Shown: positions 13,075 through 36,663 of the stretch, in pieces | Layout: every line of letters starts with the position of its first letter | Numbering within the stretch: position 1 is the stretch's first letter | Source: an uncultured Gammaproteobacteria bacterium | Lineage (GTDB): Bacteria > Patescibacteriota > Patescibacteriia > UBA1558 > S5-K13 | NCBI GenBank assembly: GCA_964636855.1 | Contig: CAZWVD010000002.1 | Coordinates: 1-37,922, forward strand | Reading direction: 5' to 3' | Length of the DNA: 37,922 nucleotides | The notes under the pieces: generated by a model | What the model saw: only the letters and a program-made list of their open reading frames with translations | What the model was told of the DNA's origin: nothing | The model's database searches: none | Position numbers and translations under genes: made by a program

Positions 13075-13273
13075 TGCCTTGCCTTAGCAGCTCTCTTCGA
13101 ATAACCTTAACCTCTTTAGGTGCTTTTATCTGGATCACCATTTCGCCTCGATGAAACCTTATAAGATTAACCTCGCAAACCTTTCCATCTAGAATAATAA
13201 CAATGCCCTCACCCACGCGCCTGCGCAAAGCTAACCCGCCAGGAGTTATTGGATTTAACGTCTCTTCGCTCAT
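13064..13273 (-). CDS. csrA: CsrA/RsmA-family RNA-binding regulator homologue (69 aa)
   Basis: LALRRRVGEGIVI...VIQIKAPKEVKVIRRELL aligns by eye with E. coli CsrA (LILTRRVGETLMI...RIGVNAPKEVSVHREEI). ATGA overlap with the portal stop; the 3' end overlaps the MuF start. Confidence 0.75.
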   Translation of the reverse strand: MSEETLNPITPGGLALRRRVGEGIVIILDGKVCEVNLIRFHRGEMVIQIKAPKEVKVIRRELLRQGNGE

Positions 13274-14664
13274 GATATTCGGCGCTTTTCTGCAGCCCTA
13301 ATCCTATTGAGGATAGAGTTTTCGCTCATAGGTAAGGGCGCGAAAGGGGACTGTTGTTGATTTTGTTGCTGTCTCTGCCCCTCTGCGCTTGCTTGTGGTA
13401 ACTTATATTTTTCTCGAGCAAACTTTTCTAGCCTGTCGTCCGCAATTACAACCCTTGAGCCAGTCAAGATTTGCAGTATTTCCGCAAGCTCCTTACCGGC
13501 CTTATCACTTATGCCAGTATGAGTGATTTTAGGGTAGGTCTCGCGCTCGCCTTTGTTCATTCCTATTAGTTCAGGTATAATCGTCTTGTTAATATCTGCT
13601 ATAATAATCTTTGCTATATAATCTAAGCCTGCAGTGAAGAAATCAGAAAGATCATTAGATAAAGCGTATGAGCCGCCTGCAGAACCCTGGCCAAGATTCA
13701 AAAAGTTCGCAACAAACGCGTTAACCATTCGCCGGTCCTCTGCGTCTATCGACTTCTCAACCTTTTCAGGATCGTAAGTGTTATTTACTAAAGTAACTTT
13801 CCATCCGGTCGGATGCGTTATGTACTGTGATTCGTGTCCTACGAAGTTCTCAAGCGCTTCAATTAGATTGTCGTATTGTTCACCGGAAAGATCTACTTCT
13901 GGTATTTCTGCAACCGGAGTTGGTATTGCGAACTTCTCAATCCCAATAGCATTTAGCTTAAGATATACGTTCTTTCTTTTGTATGCTCCATATAGAGGCC
14001 GAAGCATTGATATGCCCTCGTAATTCGATCCCTCTCTGTTGAGGGAAATCACGGTTAGAAACCTAGCGTCCATATCAATGTACCTATTAAGGTCGCCATG
14101 TGCTAGCTGCGTTACGCTCTTAAGCGTTCCATCCTCTGGATTTAAGTTCCATCTCTCCAGGGTCTTTGGCGAGCGCCATCCCATGTTCTTAAGCCCGACA
14201 TAAGACCCAAACTTTTTGCCATAAAAAATCTTGTGAGTTCTTTCAAAGACGCTCACGCCAAATTCACAGGCTGTTAGGGCCTCTGTAATGTACTGATCCC
14301 AATCAAGATCTTTAAAAAGAACCTGCTCAATTAACTCCGCATCTTGCTTGGCCTCTTCCGAATCATCTCCTGGCTGCACTGTCCATACCGCAGATCGAAT
14401 CAAGTTCTTAACTGCCAATAGCAACATCATGACGGTTGTATCAGAGCGCCGCATTTTGTCGAACTCATCCGCTCGACGATTGCCCTTTAGTGCATTTAGG
14501 TATTCTTCGTTAGGATATCCAGAAAATACTTCTGTACCGCTAGAGCCTTGTTCTTTGGAGTGTATAACCTTAACTATGTTTCTTGGTTCATTTTCAGACG
14601 GTAAATTTGGCTCTGCGAACATCGCTCGGAATGTCCTTTTAAGCCAGCCCTGTTGTTCTCTCAT
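13270..14664 (-). CDS. Portal protein
   Basis: 464 aa, between TerL (ATGA overlap) and the MuF-like gene. Size and position are typical, possibly Mu gp29/DUF935-like. Confidence 0.8.
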   Translation of the reverse strand: MREQQGWLKRTFRAMFAEPNLPSENEPRNIVKVIHSKEQGSSGTEVFSGYPNEEYLNALKGNRRADEFDKMRRSDTTVMMLLLAVKNLIRSAVWTVQPGDDSEEAKQDAELIEQVLFKDLDWDQYITEALTACEFGVSVFERTHKIFYGKKFGSYVGLKNMGWRSPKTLERWNLNPEDGTLKSVTQLAHGDLNRYIDMDARFLTVISLNREGSNYEGISMLRPLYGAYKRKNVYLKLNAIGIEKFAIPTPVAEIPEVDLSGEQYDNLIEALENFVGHESQYITHPTGWKVTLVNNTYDPEKVEKSIDAEDRRMVNAFVANFLNLGQGSAGGSYALSNDLSDFFTAGLDYIAKIIIADINKTIIPELIGMNKGERETYPKITHTGISDKAGKELAEILQILTGSRVVIADDRLEKFAREKYKLPQASAEGQRQQQNQQQSPFAPLPMSENSILNRIRAAEKRRIS

Positions 14665-20519: not shown

Positions 20520-20844
20520 TTCCCCTCCTTATCGAATCAAGCTTTTCCACAGCCCTTTCCCAATTATGATGATCACCAACAAACTTTGCCCTAGATCCGT
20601 TGCCGTAAACATACTCAGTCAAAGACTGTCCCATTTGAATAAAAAGACGACGCTGTGTTTCGTCTGCTTCTATAAGTCTTTTTTGGTCCACAAGCGACAT
20701 GCTTACTTTGTACGTTGTTAGCTCTGGGCCTTCATCTAAGCATGACTTTTCATCATAAAACTTAGATTCGACCTCTTGTCTTACATTATCGCAGGCTTCG
20801 TCTCTAGACGATATTTTTAGGTTTCTAAAGTCATTGTCACGCAT
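20512..20844 (-). CDS. Hypothetical protein (110 aa)
   Basis: Listed ORF, overlap-coupled on both sides within the early operon. Confidence 0.65.
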   Translation of the reverse strand: MRDNDFRNLKISSRDEACDNVRQEVESKFYDEKSCLDEGPELTTYKVSMSLVDQKRLIEADETQRRLFIQMGQSLTEYVYGNGSRAKFVGDHHNWERAVEKLDSIRRGNG

Positions 20845-21649
20845 TAACTTCCCCCTGCCTTTCTAGCTCAAGCACAAAATCGCTAAGTGAGCTTGAATCA
20901 TACTTTTCTATCAAACCGGCCATATCTTTTAGCTCGTCTGCATCAAGGTGGTGTGAGCTCTCTTTTTTATACAAAACCTTTATTAGCCTTTTAACAAGAT
21001 CGACATCCAGGTTCTTTTTCTTAACTATTTTTTGCAGATCCATTAATGGCGCAACTAGGTTATTCCCGGTAGACTTTTTTGGTGATGGTGGTGCGGGTGG
21101 TGGCGTAACTTTATCAGCCTTTTGGTTCTTGTTTGAGTTATCTTTCTGCTTTTGATCTATTTTTGAATCGGTATGATCATTACCATCGTTGTCTTCATCC
21201 GACACAATGCCAAGAAGGGCTGCGGCTTGATATCTCCGAGCGTATGTAATTGCAGAGCCAAGTGACTGCATATTGGCCCCGCTTAGCTTTAGCTCTAGCT
21301 CCCCAGAATCGAATGAATAGCCGGAACTGTGAACAAGAGAAGAGCCAATATAATATCTTGACTCTCTCGAATAAACCTTTTGAGTAATAACAAAATTGTG
21401 CTTCGCCAATAGCGGTCTTATTTCTTCTGTTATTGCTGTAAGCGACGCATATTTGTTTTTAAAGTGTGGATTCTCTTTATCAAACACAACCGTTTTTACC
21501 TCGCCCTGCAAAAGCACAAACTCTTTTAGGGCCTCCATTTGTTTTCGTGCAAAGCTTGCGGTAACCTCTGAAATTGATTTTTCAAAAACGTTTAGTTGTT
21601 CGTCTTTATCTAGGACTTTTTCACCCTCGCCCATTCTATTGTCTCCCAT
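20837..21649 (-). CDS. erf: ERF-family single-strand annealing recombinase
   Basis: NPHFKNKYASLTAITEEIRPLLAKHNF...HSSGY...QSLGSAITYARRYQAAALLGIVSDEDNDG matches the ERF signature. Confidence 0.85.
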   Translation of the reverse strand: MGDNRMGEGEKVLDKDEQLNVFEKSISEVTASFARKQMEALKEFVLLQGEVKTVVFDKENPHFKNKYASLTAITEEIRPLLAKHNFVITQKVYSRESRYYIGSSLVHSSGYSFDSGELELKLSGANMQSLGSAITYARRYQAAALLGIVSDEDNDGNDHTDSKIDQKQKDNSNKNQKADKVTPPPAPPSPKKSTGNNLVAPLMDLQKIVKKKNLDVDLVKRLIKVLYKKESSHHLDADELKDMAGLIEKYDSSSLSDFVLELERQGEVNA

Positions 21650-23462: not shown

Positions 23463-23548
23463 CAAGTGAAAATATTAGCTTGACCATAAGCATTGTGGCA
23501 TTTTGTGTTGCCATAACAAATCTTGTATATGTTATTACTAGAAAGTGA
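23459..23548 (+). CDS. 29-aa hydrophobic mini-protein
   Basis: ATGA overlap with the RHH stop. MTSENISLTISIVAFCVAITNLVYVITRK has one TM-length segment. Its stop overlaps the next GTG start. Confidence 0.4.
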   Translation: MTSENISLTISIVAFCVAITNLVYVITRK

Positions 23549-23760
23549 GAAGCGACTACCAAAATGAAAACGATGAGTGGATCTGTGGGGAATGCCGTAC
23601 TGTTATCGACATCGACAAAGGCGGCACGTGTAAATGTTCTTTTGATAGTAACGACGGAGATGGAATTATTTTGAAGGACGATAGTCGTTCGGTTGCTGAT
23701 GCGTTCATTCATGAGCTTAGATTAGGGATTAGTAACTTTTCTAAGGGAAAAGGAATATGA
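23545..23760 (+). CDS. Cys-rich small protein (71 aa)
   Basis: Listed ORF (GTG start, GTGA overlap). CGEC...CKC. Its stop overlaps the MTase ATG (ATGA). Confidence 0.5.
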   Translation: MRSDYQNENDEWICGECRTVIDIDKGGTCKCSFDSNDGDGIILKDDSRSVADAFIHELRLGISNFSKGKGI

Positions 23761-25028
23761 TAAATGGCTTGGATTTATTTTCAGGCATCGGTGGAATCAC
23801 GCTCGCTCTATCAGAGTGGGTCAAGCCAATCACATACTGTGAAATCGACAGATATGCACAAGCCGTTTTGTTGTCCAGAATGCAAGACGGACTATTGTCA
23901 CGAGCTCCTATCTGGGATGACGTTACAACTCTCGATGGAAAGCAATTCAGAGGACAAATTGATATTATTTACGGCGGCTTCCCGTGCCAGGACATCAGCG
24001 TTGCAGGAAATGGAAAAGGCTTGGCAGGAAACCGAAGCTGGCTTTTTAAAGAGATCATGCGCCTGGCCGAAGAAATCAAGCCCAAGTTCATATTCCTTGA
24101 AAATGTCCCAGCAATTAGGACTAGAGGACTCGAGCACGTGGCCGAATGGCTTGCCTGTTCCGGCTATGATTGCAGATGGGACTTTGTATCCGCTCAAGAA
24201 GTTGGAGCTCCACACATTAGACAACGATGGTTTTGTCTTGCCAACGCCAACGGCAACGGAGGGAGGATACAACCAGGGCGGAGGAAAAGGGCGTGCGGGA
24301 AAGTTGCGACCAAGTCTATCAATGATGGCTCGCAAGAACCTTTGGCCGACTCCGACAATCGCAGGGAATTACAACAAACCAGGGGCCAGCGAAAAATCAG
24401 GGATGGGGTTGGCATCAGCGGTGAAGTTATGGCCAACGCCTCGAGCATCAGAGGCGGGGCGCGAACCATCAAGGGTAGTCGACTGCGGCAACAAGACGAC
24501 GTTATGCGAGAGGATTGGTGGGCAGTTGAACCCAACGTGGGTCGAGTGGTTAATGGGCTATCCCCTGAGTTGGACTTCTTTATCTTTGAAAGTGAGGAAA
24601 ACAATGTTTCCAGTATCGAAACAAACGATTCGCAAGCGATCGCAGAGACTAGTCTCTTTAACAGGGAAGTCTTGCGAAAAATGTGGGAGTTCAAAGAGAT
24701 TGCAGCGTCATCACCCGAGCTATACTTCCGAAAATTGCATGATTCTTTGCCAACCTTGCCACAAAGACCAACACATCTTGGAGAAAACCTGGGGCAGAGG
24801 ATTCAAAAAGGAAGCGAATTGCATAATCTGTGGGAAAAGTTTTATACCGCTTCAGAACAAGCAGAACAAACTATGTGGCAATCCAAATTGCTTAAAAGAG
24901 TCTGGGAGATTAGCTGCGAGGAAACGATGTCAAAATCAAACCGCATAGACCGAATTAAAGGACTGGGCAACGCAGTGGTTCCGGCCCAAACAAAAGAAGC
25001 GTTTAAGAGATTGATAAAGATTACATAG
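23757..25028 (+). CDS. DNA (cytosine-5)-methyltransferase (frame 0) with a 125-codon insertion before motif X
   Basis: Motif I DLFSGIGG, IV GGFPCQDISVAG (23973-24008), VI ENV (24099-24107), VIII IRQRWFCLA, then EPNVGRVVNGLS ... NRIDRIKGLGNAVVP (motif X, 24960-24983). Confidence 0.85.
   Translation: MINGLDLFSGIGGITLALSEWVKPITYCEIDRYAQAVLLSRMQDGLLSRAPIWDDVTTLDGKQFRGQIDIIYGGFPCQDISVAGNGKGLAGNRSWLFKEIMRLAEEIKPKFIFLENVPAIRTRGLEHVAEWLACSGYDCRWDFVSAQEVGAPHIRQRWFCLANANGNGGRIQPGRRKRACGKVATKSINDGSQEPLADSDNRRELQQTRGQRKIRDGVGISGEVMANASSIRGGARTIKGSRLRQQDDVMREDWWAVEPNVGRVVNGLSPELDFFIFESEENNVSSIETNDSQAIAETSLFNREVLRKMWEFKEIAASSPELYFRKLHDSLPTLPQRPTHLGENLGQRIQKGSELHNLWEKFYTASEQAEQTMWQSKLLKRVWEISCEETMSKSNRIDRIKGLGNAVVPAQTKEAFKRLIKIT
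23764..24948 (+). other. 394-codon stop-free ORF in the +1 frame of the MTase gene (WPTP repeats, EWLMGYP motif, HNH)
   Basis: Listed ORF. LPTPTATE (24238-24261), LWPTPT (24340-24357), LWPTPRASE (24427-24453), LNPTWVEWLMGYPLSWT (24526-24576), HNH (24664-24774). Confidence 0.5.
24604..24948 (+). CDS. Nested small HNH endonuclease (114 aa) in the +1 frame inside the MTase gene
   Basis: ATG 24604 lies 5 nt after GAGGA (24594-24598). SCEKCGSSKRLQRHHPSYTSENCMILCQPCHKDQH is a canonical HNH. Second knuckle CIICGKSF...CGNPNC (24820-24891). Confidence 0.65.
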   Translation: MFPVSKQTIRKRSQRLVSLTGKSCEKCGSSKRLQRHHPSYTSENCMILCQPCHKDQHILEKTWGRGFKKEANCIICGKSFIPLQNKQNKLCGNPNCLKESGRLAARKRCQNQTA

Positions 25029-33806: not shown

Positions 33807-34603
33807 TAGTTTGAAACCTCTATGAGCTTTATTTTAACAACCTGGCCCGACGTATAGAATCCTTTATACCATTCTGGTTCTAGCTCATCTTGACACTTCA
33901 TCAAAACGATATCTTCTTTCCTGTACCCGATTCTCCTAGATGAGAATTGTGAATCATCGCCTCCTGATAACCAAACATGAAAGCCAGAGTTCATAGCGTA
34001 AAGCGCCTCAATTATAGAAAGGTCAGAGTCATCCGATGTTACTTTTATCTGTAACTCGCACGAGAATGTCTCTATTTGTTCTTTTATATTTACGCGCCCG
34101 CTTATTAGCTTGGAGATTATTCTATTTCTTGAAACCTTAGGCGACTTAATTATAGGCCATCCGTTTAGTTGTCCTATGCTGTCGCAAGCAAGCATTTGAA
34201 ATAAATATTTGTCAGAATCGGCAACCATTGTCCCGGTAATTATTAGCTTTATCTTTGTTGTAAAAACTTGAGTAAATTGATGAAATGTCGTTGCGTCAGA
34301 GTTATTTGAGACATTTATCGCAGTCGAGAAATCTACGTATGTAGATCCGTTGTAATACTGCAGCGTGTATGACTTAAAGTTGTGCTTTATTAAAAGTATT
34401 GAATCTATACTTACAAGATCAACAAAATTTACTTCTATATAGGTATTGTCTGCGTCTACAGACCCAGTAGTGGCCCATGCTGTTCGATTTGACCTATTGC
34501 GTATGAAGTTAACAAAGTCGTTTCCTTGGCTTGCAGTCAGCGTAACTACATCGTTTGATATATCTAATCTCGATTTATAAAAAAACCTTATTTGCTGACT
34601 CAT
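33806..34603 (-). CDS. Distal tail protein (Dit)-like (by position)
   Basis: 265 aa, immediately downstream of the tape measure with a 4-nt overlap. Confidence 0.5.
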   Translation of the reverse strand: MSQQIRFFYKSRLDISNDVVTLTASQGNDFVNFIRNRSNRTAWATTGSVDADNTYIEVNFVDLVSIDSILLIKHNFKSYTLQYYNGSTYVDFSTAINVSNNSDATTFHQFTQVFTTKIKLIITGTMVADSDKYLFQMLACDSIGQLNGWPIIKSPKVSRNRIISKLISGRVNIKEQIETFSCELQIKVTSDDSDLSIIEALYAMNSGFHVWLSGGDDSQFSSRRIGYRKEDIVLMKCQDELEPEWYKGFYTSGQVVKIKLIEVSN

Positions 34604-36663
34604 GCCATCTGTGTCCTTAGAGATATGCCAAGTCTTTCACGCTCGTTTGCTTGAACGTCTATAAAGTCCATAAGATTATCTTTAAGCGTTAAGACAAGCT
34701 CTATGCTTTGAGGCGGTGTTTGTTGTTCTTGCCCCGTGCCCACTCCAGACCTTTGCGATGCTACGGCCCCTACAACCTCTTCAAAATTTCTAGCCGGAAC
34801 AACAAGCTCTCCGTTAGAAAGCATAGCTGGTATAACATCTGCCGTTGGACCGCCTGGCCCTGTTATTAACCCGCCGTCTGCCGCAGCATTTACCTTCCCT
34901 ATCTGTTCTGCTCCAAATGCGATTGCCGCTGCCGCTCCTGCTATACCTAATGCCGGTCCGATAATAGGTATGGTCGAAAATCCTGCATAAATATTCATTG
35001 CAGATGTCGCAGTTTGGAAAATTATTTGCGCCGTAGCGGCGGCCTTTCCGATACCCTTTAGCGCCGAGTTATTAGACTGTTGTAATGCTGCCAGCTCGCC
35101 AAAGGCTTGCGCTGATCCTTGCACAATTGTCGAGTGCATTATTTTATTAATTGTTGCGTAGGCTGTTCCAAACTTGACCTGTTCTTTTAAAAAAGTGTCA
35201 TTTGCTTGGCGTTGTTGAGCGAGTTTTTCTTGTTGCACGGCGTACTCTGCAGCCTGTTGTTCTGTTCTAATAGCTCTAGCCTCTTCATATCTTGCAAGCT
35301 GGACTTCTCTGTCGCCCTCATAGTTTTCATCATCTAATGCTTTAAGCGACTCTAGTTCTTGCCTTTTTGCTTCTATCAAAAACTCCGATGCTTGCTGCCT
35401 CTCTAGCTGTTCAACCTCTCTTGCTAGCCTTCGTATCTCGGCCATTCTTTCTTCATGATCTTGCTGCAGAGATTCTCTCTTTGCTGCAGCATCAGCAAGA
35501 GCCTGATTTTGCGATTCCTCGGAAACCTCCGGGGCTTTTATTTCAACTGTTGCCTCATTAAATCCTCTTGCAAACGCTTCCTTTAATTGCCTTCCGCCTG
35601 CTTTTATGTTTTCTAAATTCGCAGTAAAGACGCCAGCAAGTAGGGTTCCAAGTCCACCCAAAAGACCGCTTATATTATTAACAAATGCCTGAAATACAGC
35701 CTGCATTCTAGGCCAAGCGGTATTCCAATTAAGCGCCAGCTCTGTTACAGCAAAGACTATAAGCCCAAGGCCAGTAGCGCCAACTAGAGCTCTTACTCCA
35801 ACAGTCATGAGACTCATTGTTACGTTGGCAGCAGCCATTGCTGCGCGAAGCTTTAAGAAAGCAATTCCGCCTAATGTTACGGCGGTTGCAAGTCCAGTTA
35901 CAACTGCACCAGCCGTCAATAACGCGGCAATAAAATCTACAAGTCCCTTGTTGTCTTTAATAAAAATAAGCATCTGATTTAATTTGTTTGCAACAAATGT
36001 TAGTGCTGGCGCAAATCTTGCCCCAATCTCCTCTTGAAGATCGCCAAAGGTCTCTTTGAGCTTTACTATGGCACCAAGACCCGCGCCGGCGGCGGCGGCC
36101 TGTCCAGAATATCTAGCATTTAACTGTACAATTACTTGATCTAGCTTTTCTGCCTTTGTCGCGCTAGCATCGACTTCTATTCCATAGCGAGTTAATGCAT
36201 TTGTACTTGTTCCTATGCTCTTTCCGACTAGCTGCGCAGCGGTTGACAAGTCAACGCCTTGAGCCTTCGCAAAGTCTGCTATAGCAAGCGTTAACTCTTG
36301 AGTTACTTCCTTCTGTCCAATGTATCCTTGAATTGCGGTTTGCGCGTTTAAAATTGCTTCATCTGATATGCCGGTCAAATTTTGAATTGCCGTAGCCTGG
36401 TCTTTATATTTATCCACAAGATCCCTAGAGAATATTCCTTGATTCTGGAGAGCTGCGGAAAGCCTGTTCGTAGCCTCTTCTGATTGCCTATATGCAGCAA
36501 CAGAAAAGCCGATCTCTGCTGTCAATGCTGCAAATGCAATTGCGGACTTTTGCGCAACACTAGAAAGAGAGTCGCTGAGTCCTGCGGTTTCTTTTGATGC
36601 CTTATCTAAAGCGTCTTCATAGTTCTTTATGTCGCCGCTAATTTTTATTACTAACTCTGCCAT
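34600..36663 (-). CDS. Tail tape measure protein
   Basis: 687 aa, A/G/L-rich with central hydrophobic helices and an E/Q/R coiled coil. Follows the chaperone pair. Confidence 0.9.
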   Translation of the reverse strand: MAELVIKISGDIKNYEDALDKASKETAGLSDSLSSVAQKSAIAFAALTAEIGFSVAAYRQSEEATNRLSAALQNQGIFSRDLVDKYKDQATAIQNLTGISDEAILNAQTAIQGYIGQKEVTQELTLAIADFAKAQGVDLSTAAQLVGKSIGTSTNALTRYGIEVDASATKAEKLDQVIVQLNARYSGQAAAAGAGLGAIVKLKETFGDLQEEIGARFAPALTFVANKLNQMLIFIKDNKGLVDFIAALLTAGAVVTGLATAVTLGGIAFLKLRAAMAAANVTMSLMTVGVRALVGATGLGLIVFAVTELALNWNTAWPRMQAVFQAFVNNISGLLGGLGTLLAGVFTANLENIKAGGRQLKEAFARGFNEATVEIKAPEVSEESQNQALADAAAKRESLQQDHEERMAEIRRLAREVEQLERQQASEFLIEAKRQELESLKALDDENYEGDREVQLARYEEARAIRTEQQAAEYAVQQEKLAQQRQANDTFLKEQVKFGTAYATINKIMHSTIVQGSAQAFGELAALQQSNNSALKGIGKAAATAQIIFQTATSAMNIYAGFSTIPIIGPALGIAGAAAAIAFGAEQIGKVNAAADGGLITGPGGPTADVIPAMLSNGELVVPARNFEEVVGAVASQRSGVGTGQEQQTPPQSIELVLTLKDNLMDFIDVQANERERLGISLRTQMA

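Follow-up and report, generated by a model that had tools for sequence, protein, structure and literature searches.

Cytosine-5 (C5) methyltransferases made of two chains and nuclease genes hidden inside methylase genes have both been described, and both bear on the gene analyzed here, a methyltransferase gene on the forward strand of contig CAZWVD010000002.1 (assembly GCA_964636855.1) that is open in two same-strand frames. The contig is 37,922 nucleotides (nt) long, and this whole stretch is referred to below as the window. M.EcoHK31I of E. coli HK31, which recognizes YGGCCR, is a heterodimeric C5-methyltransferase (Lee, Kam & Shaw 1995, as related in PMC2836561 and PMC3404938). According to these two accounts, its α chain contains motifs I–VIII and X, its β chain contains motif IX, activity needs both chains, and β is coded wholly inside the α gene, on the same strand and in another frame; the N-terminal ~42 residues of β are dispensable, and internal Met codons can initiate. 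M.AquI of Agmenellum quadruplicatum (CYCGRG) is also a two-subunit enzyme (Karreman & de Waard 1990, per PMC3404938) and is described there as split in the variable region, with a small subunit that holds the distal variable region and motifs IX and X.

A precedent of another kind is the “ShiLan domain”, an HNH hidden out of frame within the DNA methylase gene of a mycobacteriophage (Arsenault, Gosselin & Gogarten 2025, PMC11855218). This insertion is located at conserved methylase residues, leaves the host frame free of stops and shows no features of an intron or intein. Its patchy distribution suggests homing, and the route by which the HNH protein (195 amino acids (aa), third frame, GTG start, no ribosome-binding site) is translated was left open in that paper.

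The window gene consists of an α open reading frame (ORF) in frame 0 (23757..25028, + strand, 423 codons) and a +1-frame ORF inside it (23764..24948, same strand, 394 codons), which is a single open run comprising β and an HNH ORF. An earlier note, made from the letters alone, had given exactly these two ORFs, and the motif strings that it quoted from both frames are located where it had placed them. As judged from sequence, the locus probably encodes a two-subunit C5-methyltransferase, both chains being specified by one DNA in different frames, and probably also harbors a selfish nuclease gene. In layout (α with motifs I–VIII and X, a nested same-strand second ORF), it is like M.EcoHK31I as that enzyme is described. 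Unlike the enzyme of those descriptions, it is a phage orphan methylase outside a characterized restriction-modification pair, it has a nested putative HNH gene, and the β ORF of its family usually spans the whole α gene, with an ATG 4–7 nt after the α start. It is also unlike M.AquI, as summarized, in that motif X is in the α frame and not in β. The monomeric type II enzymes M.HhaI and M.HaeIII (PF00145) have the same order of motifs along the DNA, I–VIII … IX … X, with all motifs in one frame and one chain, whereas in the window the segment between VIII and X is in another frame.

Two reading frames of the methyltransferase gene

The α product matches Pfam PF00145 (E=8.5e-40, residues 3–216, profile positions 2–217 of 324) and PHROG 363 (E=1.8e-61). 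C5-methylase motifs I (FxGxG), IV (PCQ), VI (ENV), VIII (QxRxR) and X (GNxVxP) are all present in the α polypeptide. The first four read DLFSGIGG (23772–23795), GGFPCQDISVAG (23973–24008), ENV (24099–24107) and PHIRQRWFCLA, which contains RQRWFCLA (24210–24242), and their columns are invariant in alignment A3. Motif X, NRIDRIKGLGNAVVP (24939–24983, including GLGNAVVP), has R396, R399, L403, G404 and N405 invariant in the same alignment. What α does not have in the same chain is a small domain (target recognition domain (TRD) and motif IX) between VIII and X. In the AlphaFold2 (AF2) model of α, residues 1–167 are predicted with a predicted local distance difference test (pLDDT) score of 80–98. 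Residues 168–267, the unconserved frame-0 reading of the WPTP region, score below 50, and the motif X helix (397–420) scores high again; over motif X, the C-terminal helix and the stop codon (24939..25028), pLDDT is 85–96. A Foldseek search with this model retrieved M.HhaI and M.HaeIII (~6e-12) over only ~169 columns, with a template-modelling score by target of 0.45; the large domain of these enzymes matches the first 167 residues of α, and the modelled match is to a large domain without the small domain.

The β ORF proper (23764..24575, + strand) begins with an N-terminal leader that runs over α motifs I–VIII and continues into a conserved core (24238..24576), which reads LPTPTATE (24238–24261), LWPTPT (24340–24357), LWPTPRASE (24427–24453) and the motif IX-like LNPTWVEWLMGYPLSWT (24526–24576). 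The β product matches PHROG 1008, labelled “DNA methyltransferase”, with E=4e-21. Significant homologues were thus obtained when the two translations were searched separately, as the earlier note had proposed (PF00145/PHROG 363 for one, PHROG 1008 for the other). Its suspicion that two recurrent methylase-linked protein patterns are two readings of one DNA also holds, PHROG 363 being the frame-0 and PHROG 1008 the +1 reading; the frame-0 (L/V)A(D/N)x(D/N) strings of one pattern are a by-product of the +1 WPTP repeats of the other. The PHROGs database itself splits the two readings of this gene family and labels both “DNA methyltransferase”.

No family was found for the +1 product in Pfam and NCBIfam searches, and a β profile had no match among PDB sequences. 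We also used chimeras in which frame 0, +1 and frame 0 segments were spliced in order. In a phmmer search of the PDB with such a frame-spliced chimera, the +1 segment LNPTWVEWLMGYPLSW aligned, as a second domain below threshold, with residues 274–292 of M.HhaI, its motif IX LHPRECARVMGYPDSYKVH; the string common to the +1 core and M.HhaI motif IX is L.P....(L/V)MG(Y/F/W)P..(W/Y). In the other chimera tests (Pfam, a chimera profile against the PDB, and hhalign against an approximate M.HhaI sequence), alignments ended at motif VIII. Judging by this likeness, the constrained part of β looks like the missing motif IX/variable-region piece of the same enzyme.

To see which frame is constrained where, 73 genes were aligned with the +1 protein as a guide and nucleotide entropy was scored per codon position. 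Most variation is found at frame-0 position 3 between the start and motif VIII, and at +1 position 3 between the first PTP repeat and the end of LNPxWVEWLMGxPxGWTDLxPLE; beyond this string, at motif X, the peak is again at frame-0 position 3. The window and its nearest relative, L091, differ in the N-terminal part at 15/6/35 frame-0 positions 1/2/3, and between motifs VIII and IX at 34/16/10. Constraint therefore passes from frame 0 to +1 at motif VIII and back to frame 0 after motif IX. Since entropy is low at all three codon positions of the EWLMG…GWTDL block (0.64/0.76/1.20 and 0.81/0.98/1.05), this block is truly doubly constrained; in the window, the overlap (24519..24576) reads WAVEPNVGRVVNGLS, the lead-in to motif X, in α and LNPTWVEWLMGYPLSWT in β on the same bases. 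Double constraint is limited to short junctions; outside them, a single frame is coding and the other is simply kept open. The unconstrained β leader fits the dispensable N-terminus reported for M.EcoHK31I β in the accounts cited above.

The openness of the +1 frame was compared with synonymous-codon shuffles. With the window gene shuffled 100 times, the length of the longest open run in +1 had a mean of 111 codons and a maximum of 236, compared with 394 observed. Over the 73 homologous genes, 233 stops were found in the +1 frame against 564 expected, in a family-wide test of the kind that the earlier note had proposed. The +2 frame contained 1204 (1131 expected) and the antisense frames 548/553, 427/421 and 940/886 (observed/expected). 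Since antisense stops are at expectation in these genes, the antisense ORFs of the window, which had been raised as a caveat, are due to chance. Between motifs IV and VIII, 2 +1 stops were observed against 115 expected (52 genes); the corresponding counts are 44 against 100 upstream of motif IV and 0 against 96 between motifs VIII and IX. In the latter, +1-coded region there are also no frame-0 stops, while 179 would be expected if only the +1 frame were coding. The +1 frame is open for 85–150 codons upstream of the motif VIII junction, and its openness is seen at 42–68% guanine-plus-cytosine (GC) content and 25–77% identity, in phages and in many bacterial phyla. Both frames are therefore kept open by selection family-wide.

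The same picture was obtained with loci chosen in opposite ways. In 80 viral loci picked by frame-0 motifs only, and not by +1 sequence, there are 1–5 stops per locus in the +1 frame, nearly all at gene ends, and 10–35 in the +2 frame. In all four distant phage homologues (25–39% identity; Acinetobacter, Paenibacillus and Microcystis phages and phage C75C1), the +1 ORF is near full-length and reads WPTP repeats and LNPxWVEWLMGxPxGWT. Conversely, when 80 cellular-genome loci from many phyla were chosen by the β motif alone, a complete methylase ORF (PCQ, ENV, motif X) was present in the −1 frame of β in 68. No single-chain relative with catalytic and β motifs in one frame was found among 371 proteins or among 80 genome loci, and no β core without an overlapping α was found in the loci sampled. 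The +1 translation has >2400 full-length database homologues (best E=3e-86) that are called as genes and named “hypothetical protein”. Because the β core alone retrieves 10,957 cluster representatives at E<=1e-3, the α/β layout is widespread; it is mostly annotated as a single gene or as a “hypothetical protein”.

Relatives L127 (868–2103) and L160 (1188–2337) serve as natural controls. In these loci motif X is in the β frame and α ends right after motif VIII; downstream of the α stop the α frame is no longer open, and the +1 ORF, which spans all of α, contains the variable region together with motifs IX and X. They share the layout of M.AquI as summarized above (α with I–VIII; β with the variable region, IX and X), though their β still overlaps all of α. 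Database β ORFs running into motif X were also found (P0287, P0288, P0311 and P0312). Frame openness thus tracks which chain must reach which motif, and this pattern, as read from the sequences, is what a two-polypeptide model would predict.

The start region (23743..23766, + strand) contains two Shine–Dalgarno (SD)-like elements, the ATG codons of α and β and the stop of an upstream ORF. AAGGG (23743–47) is located 9 nt before the α ATG (23757) and AAGGA (23750–54) 9 nt before the β ATG (23764), which is 7 nt past that of α. The upstream ORF (23545..23760, 71 aa) ends with a TGA (23758–60) that overlaps the α ATG (ATGA) and precedes the β ATG by 4 nt. Two SD-like elements 7 nt apart, each 9 nt before its own ATG, suggest coupled initiation of both frames. 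In 38 of the 73 homologues, a +1 ATG is found exactly 11 nt before the Leu codon of motif I; the α start, often a GTG or TTG codon, is 4 or 7 nt upstream of this ATG, and one SD-like element precedes both starts. In other lineages the first +1 ATG is just before motif IV, which matches the point where +1 stop depletion turns absolute.

In the enzyme that we propose, α would provide the catalytic large domain (motifs I–VIII) and the motif X helix that completes it, joined by an unstructured, unconserved linker of ~100 residues. Starting from its ATG 7 nt after that of α, β would first yield a translated but unconstrained leader across the catalytic-domain region. It would then supply the part missing from α, i.e., the WPTP repeats (variable/target-recognition region) and LNPxWVEWLMGxPxxW. 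By analogy with M.EcoHK31I, the two chains would assemble into the active enzyme. Translation of both chains, heterodimer formation and recognition of DNA by β are what we infer for this locus, together with homing of the HNH element considered next.

The insertion and its putative HNH gene

The earlier note had described a gene open in two frames for ~1.2 kb. Both frames are indeed open, but ~375 nt of this length is an inserted element, and the note had missed that the +1 ORF ends with ~345 nt of a separate inserted gene, for a putative HNH endonuclease. Pairwise alignment to L091, the closest uninterrupted relative, in which the site reads GAGTGGACAGAATTAAAG, places the insertion at 24576..24950 (+ strand, 375 nt, 125 codons), between β GYPLSWT and the usual β tail. 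GAC microhomology is present at both ends, leaving the boundary uncertain by 3 nt. A remnant of the usual β C-terminus, TELKDWATQWFRPKQKKRLRD, with its stop codon (24949..25014; tail 24949..25011), follows the insertion on the same strand and fits the family consensus GWTxLxxWAxQWFRSKRxKRSK; it is separated from β by the stop codon of the HNH ORF. Because the length of the insertion is a multiple of three and it contains no frame-0 stop, α still reaches motif X.

The HNH ORF (24604..24948, + strand, 114 aa) is in the β frame, and GAGGA (24594–98) is located 5 nt before its ATG. It matches PHROG 2340 “endonuclease” (E=1.7e-5) and PHROG 4234 “HNH endonuclease” (E=8.7e-4), and Pfam HNH (PF01844) with E=0.059 at 14 bits, under the 21.4-bit cut-off. 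The Cys/His columns of the HNH CxxC..HH..N..CxxCH motif are invariant in eight sequences; in the window, the CxxC..HH..CxxCH core is at 24673–24774 and a second Cys4 ribbon is at 24820–24891. An HNH profile searched against the PDB gave noise only, with no sequence match. The HNH ORF alone had no match in viral contigs or in a protein search, and tblastn with the HNH part gave no phage match.

The same insertion is present in six further relatives, L085–L090 (41–56% identical). In these seven genes, entropy by HNH-frame codon position is 0.57/0.51/1.05, i.e., the wobble is at +1 position 3, and no frame-0 stops are found within the insertion against 33 expected. All seven share an ATG with an SD-like element and the +1 wobble. 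In five of them β continues into the HNH ORF, while in two (L087 and L089) β has its own stop directly before the HNH ATG. A related HNH is found at the same site in a distant GC-rich gene, L062, and an HNH-type ORF is also present there in L079. An Rfam scan revealed no intron, frameshift element or other RNA family, and no repeats flanking the insertion were found. Since the HNH frame differs from the host frame, the element cannot be an intein.

The insertion is like the ShiLan domain in that it adds no host-frame stop, has its HNH in another frame and lacks an intron or intein signature. It is unlike it in that the HNH is 114 aa long, in the +1 frame and preceded by GAGGA and an ATG, and the two proteins are not detectably similar by tblastn. 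It also differs in that the HNH frame is the β-subunit frame, so that the HNH is fused to β or directly follows its stop; a route to translation is therefore on offer. The picture we favor is of a 375-nt element that would have lodged just after motif IX, in the β frame, with its own Shine–Dalgarno sequence and ATG. From its sequence, the HNH ORF is presumably a homing endonuclease gene, and the IX/X overlap, which is doubly constrained and the best conserved DNA of the gene, would be a natural homing target. An HNH in the frame of an overlapping subunit, with its own Shine–Dalgarno sequence and ATG, suggests a possible answer to the question of how hidden HNH proteins are translated that was raised for ShiLan.

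As a side observation, AF2 predicts helices with pLDDT 84–94 for α residues ~290–390 (24624–24930), which are the frame-0 reading of the HNH gene. Nucleotide variation there follows the HNH frame despite these helices. This read-through of α may form a genuine insert domain, or the helices may be artefactual and reflect by-product conservation.

Separately, the doubly coded IX/X segment is duplicated in L002 (1008–2045), L062 (1423–2727), L087 (3001–4227) and L089 (301–1644). Of the two copies, the first gives a good β-frame reading and the second a good α-frame reading, so that the overlap is resolved. The HNH insertion is flanked by the duplicated segments in L062, L087 and L089.

Competing explanations

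Several observations weigh against a two-subunit enzyme with a selfish nuclease gene inside. The AF2 model of β is poor (mean pLDDT 57.8), with a disordered N-terminus and a C-terminal core at 60–80, and a Foldseek search of the PDB with this low-confidence model gave no fold match. The motif IX-like identity of the +1 motif is argued from resemblance and one sub-threshold alignment, and no amino-acid constraint specific to β is seen in its first ~150 residues, an unusual finding if this segment is translated. In the two accounts cited above (PMC2836561, PMC3404938), the predicted TRD of M.EcoHK31I was put in α and not in β, unlike the variable region between VIII and IX here, which is constrained in the β frame. 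Finally, the case made for the gene and its relatives is drawn from sequences and structure models.

A single-chain methylase could be made by two programmed frameshifts, one of +1 past motif VIII and one of −1 past motif IX, to give the order I–VIII, TRD, IX, X. The switch of constrained frame 0 → +1 → 0 follows the canonical motif order exactly, a run of four T (24231–24234) is present at the first junction of the window, and the L127 and L160 variants would need one shift only. We nevertheless consider this route improbable. The search for slippery sites at the frame switch that the earlier note had proposed revealed nothing conserved: a homopolymer of >=4 is present at junction 1 in only 17 of 54 genes, there is no conserved slippery sequence or heptamer, and no frameshift element was found by Rfam. 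Because α WIVA(D/H) and β SGLWPTP, both conserved, overlap at the junction, any shift point would cost one of these strings. The route also leaves unexplained the +1 openness upstream of the junction (2/115), the frame-0 openness in the +1-coded region (0/179) and the conserved +1 ATG beside the α start. In L087 and L089, where β has its own stop, α must cross ~130 codons more, and M.EcoHK31I was found experimentally to be two separate polypeptides, as its descriptions have it. The second option of the earlier note, 0 → +1 → 0 frameshifting, is accordingly disfavored by the stop counts, the conserved +1 ATG, the lack of a conserved slippery site, and L127 and L160.

According to another explanation, α alone is the methylase and the +1 ORF encodes an independent overprinted protein unrelated to methylation, e.g., a regulator or an anti-defence factor. 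The absence of a Pfam or NCBIfam family and of a structural match for the +1 product would be in line with this, as would its listing as a separate hypothetical protein in some database records. Since nothing structured in α corresponds to the small domain and motif IX, and the +1 core was always accompanied by an overlapping α in the sampled loci, such a protein is unlikely. Moreover, the +1 core string resembles M.HhaI motif IX, the +1 chain of some relatives continues into motif X and is therefore tied to the enzyme, and there is a published two-subunit precedent. The first option of the earlier note, an overprinted second protein, is the best fit of its three, but not as a de novo novelty: the constrained part of this protein looks like the missing piece of the enzyme, in an architecture published for M.EcoHK31I.

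That +1 openness reflects composition or codon usage without any function, is left over from a pseudogene or results from sequencing frameshifts is hardly credible in spite of the GC content of the region (0.489, above its surroundings) and the long antisense ORFs in the window, since stop depletion is confined to +1 (+2 and antisense frames being at expectation), +1 openness persists over the GC, identity and taxonomic range given above, and wobble variation indicates that the core is under purifying selection in its +1 reading. A composition or sequencing artefact is ruled out computationally by the +1-only stop depletion and the codon-position variation; local stop depletion, the third option of the earlier note, is excluded because +2 and antisense stops are as expected.

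Novelty, database records and genomic context

The two-subunit reading with its inserted nuclease gene combines features of already known kinds, namely a nested subunit as in M.EcoHK31I and a hidden HNH of the ShiLan kind. So far as the literature searched shows, what is new is how large the family is, the β ORF that spans the whole gene with the two start codons side by side, the evidence for a variable region coded in the β frame and the combination with an HNH gene in that same frame. A bolder generalization, which we put forward tentatively and regard as somewhat doubtful, is that nested α/β would be the standard design of a very large clade of C5-methylases from phages and prophages (>10,000 clusters at 50% identity). 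Under this generalization, β would recognize DNA (WPTP repeats and motif IX), start 4–7 nt from α and have a stop-free unconstrained leader, and the HNH would be a homing endonuclease specialized for the IX/X overlap and translated via the β frame, with an α read-through that may fold.

If α and β are both needed, thousands of database entries would be mis-described. Entries named “DNA cytosine methyltransferase” would carry a meaningless frame-0 “variable region”, and thousands of “hypothetical proteins” and a PHROG labelled methyltransferase would be the second subunit. Expression of the annotated ORF alone after codon alteration or optimization would destroy β and yield an inactive enzyme, which would matter both to studies of phage methylomes and to the use of phage methylases as tools. 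The family also represents an extensive natural collection of long overlapping genes on one strand, in which the two frames clearly divide the labor.

Several existing records touch on this layout. In Paenibacillus phage Shelly (L172, NC_041909; 408–1445 / 592–1296), the +1 ORF is annotated as gp56, “DNA methyltransferase; g55 internal gene”, within gp55, and many P. larvae phage records have two methyltransferase features at the spot of Shelly gp55/gp56. Mycobacteriophage Che9d gp80 (L174, 1201–1959), a cluster F C5-methylase, is of the α/β type. In phage Llama (L173, 1501–2260), a 1-nt frameshift splits α into two “DNA methylase” genes, gp74 and gp75, and the β reading is shifted too. In the L051 gene (1441–2400), frame 0 itself enters the EWLMGWPIGWTDLKPL reading near its end; this is a genuine frameshift allele or else the result of misassembly.

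A megablast search of phage genomes with the locus gave no match, and no close DNA-level relative of the window was found among deposited phage genomes. The GC content of 24001–25000 is 0.489, and that of the neighboring kilobases ~0.39–0.43; the methylase locus is compositionally distinct from the remainder of the phage genome. Homologues of a portal protein, an Erf-like annealing protein and a tape-measure protein are encoded at 13270–14664, 20837–21649 and 34600–36663, all on the − strand, and the 37.9-kb window is therefore a tailed-phage genome.

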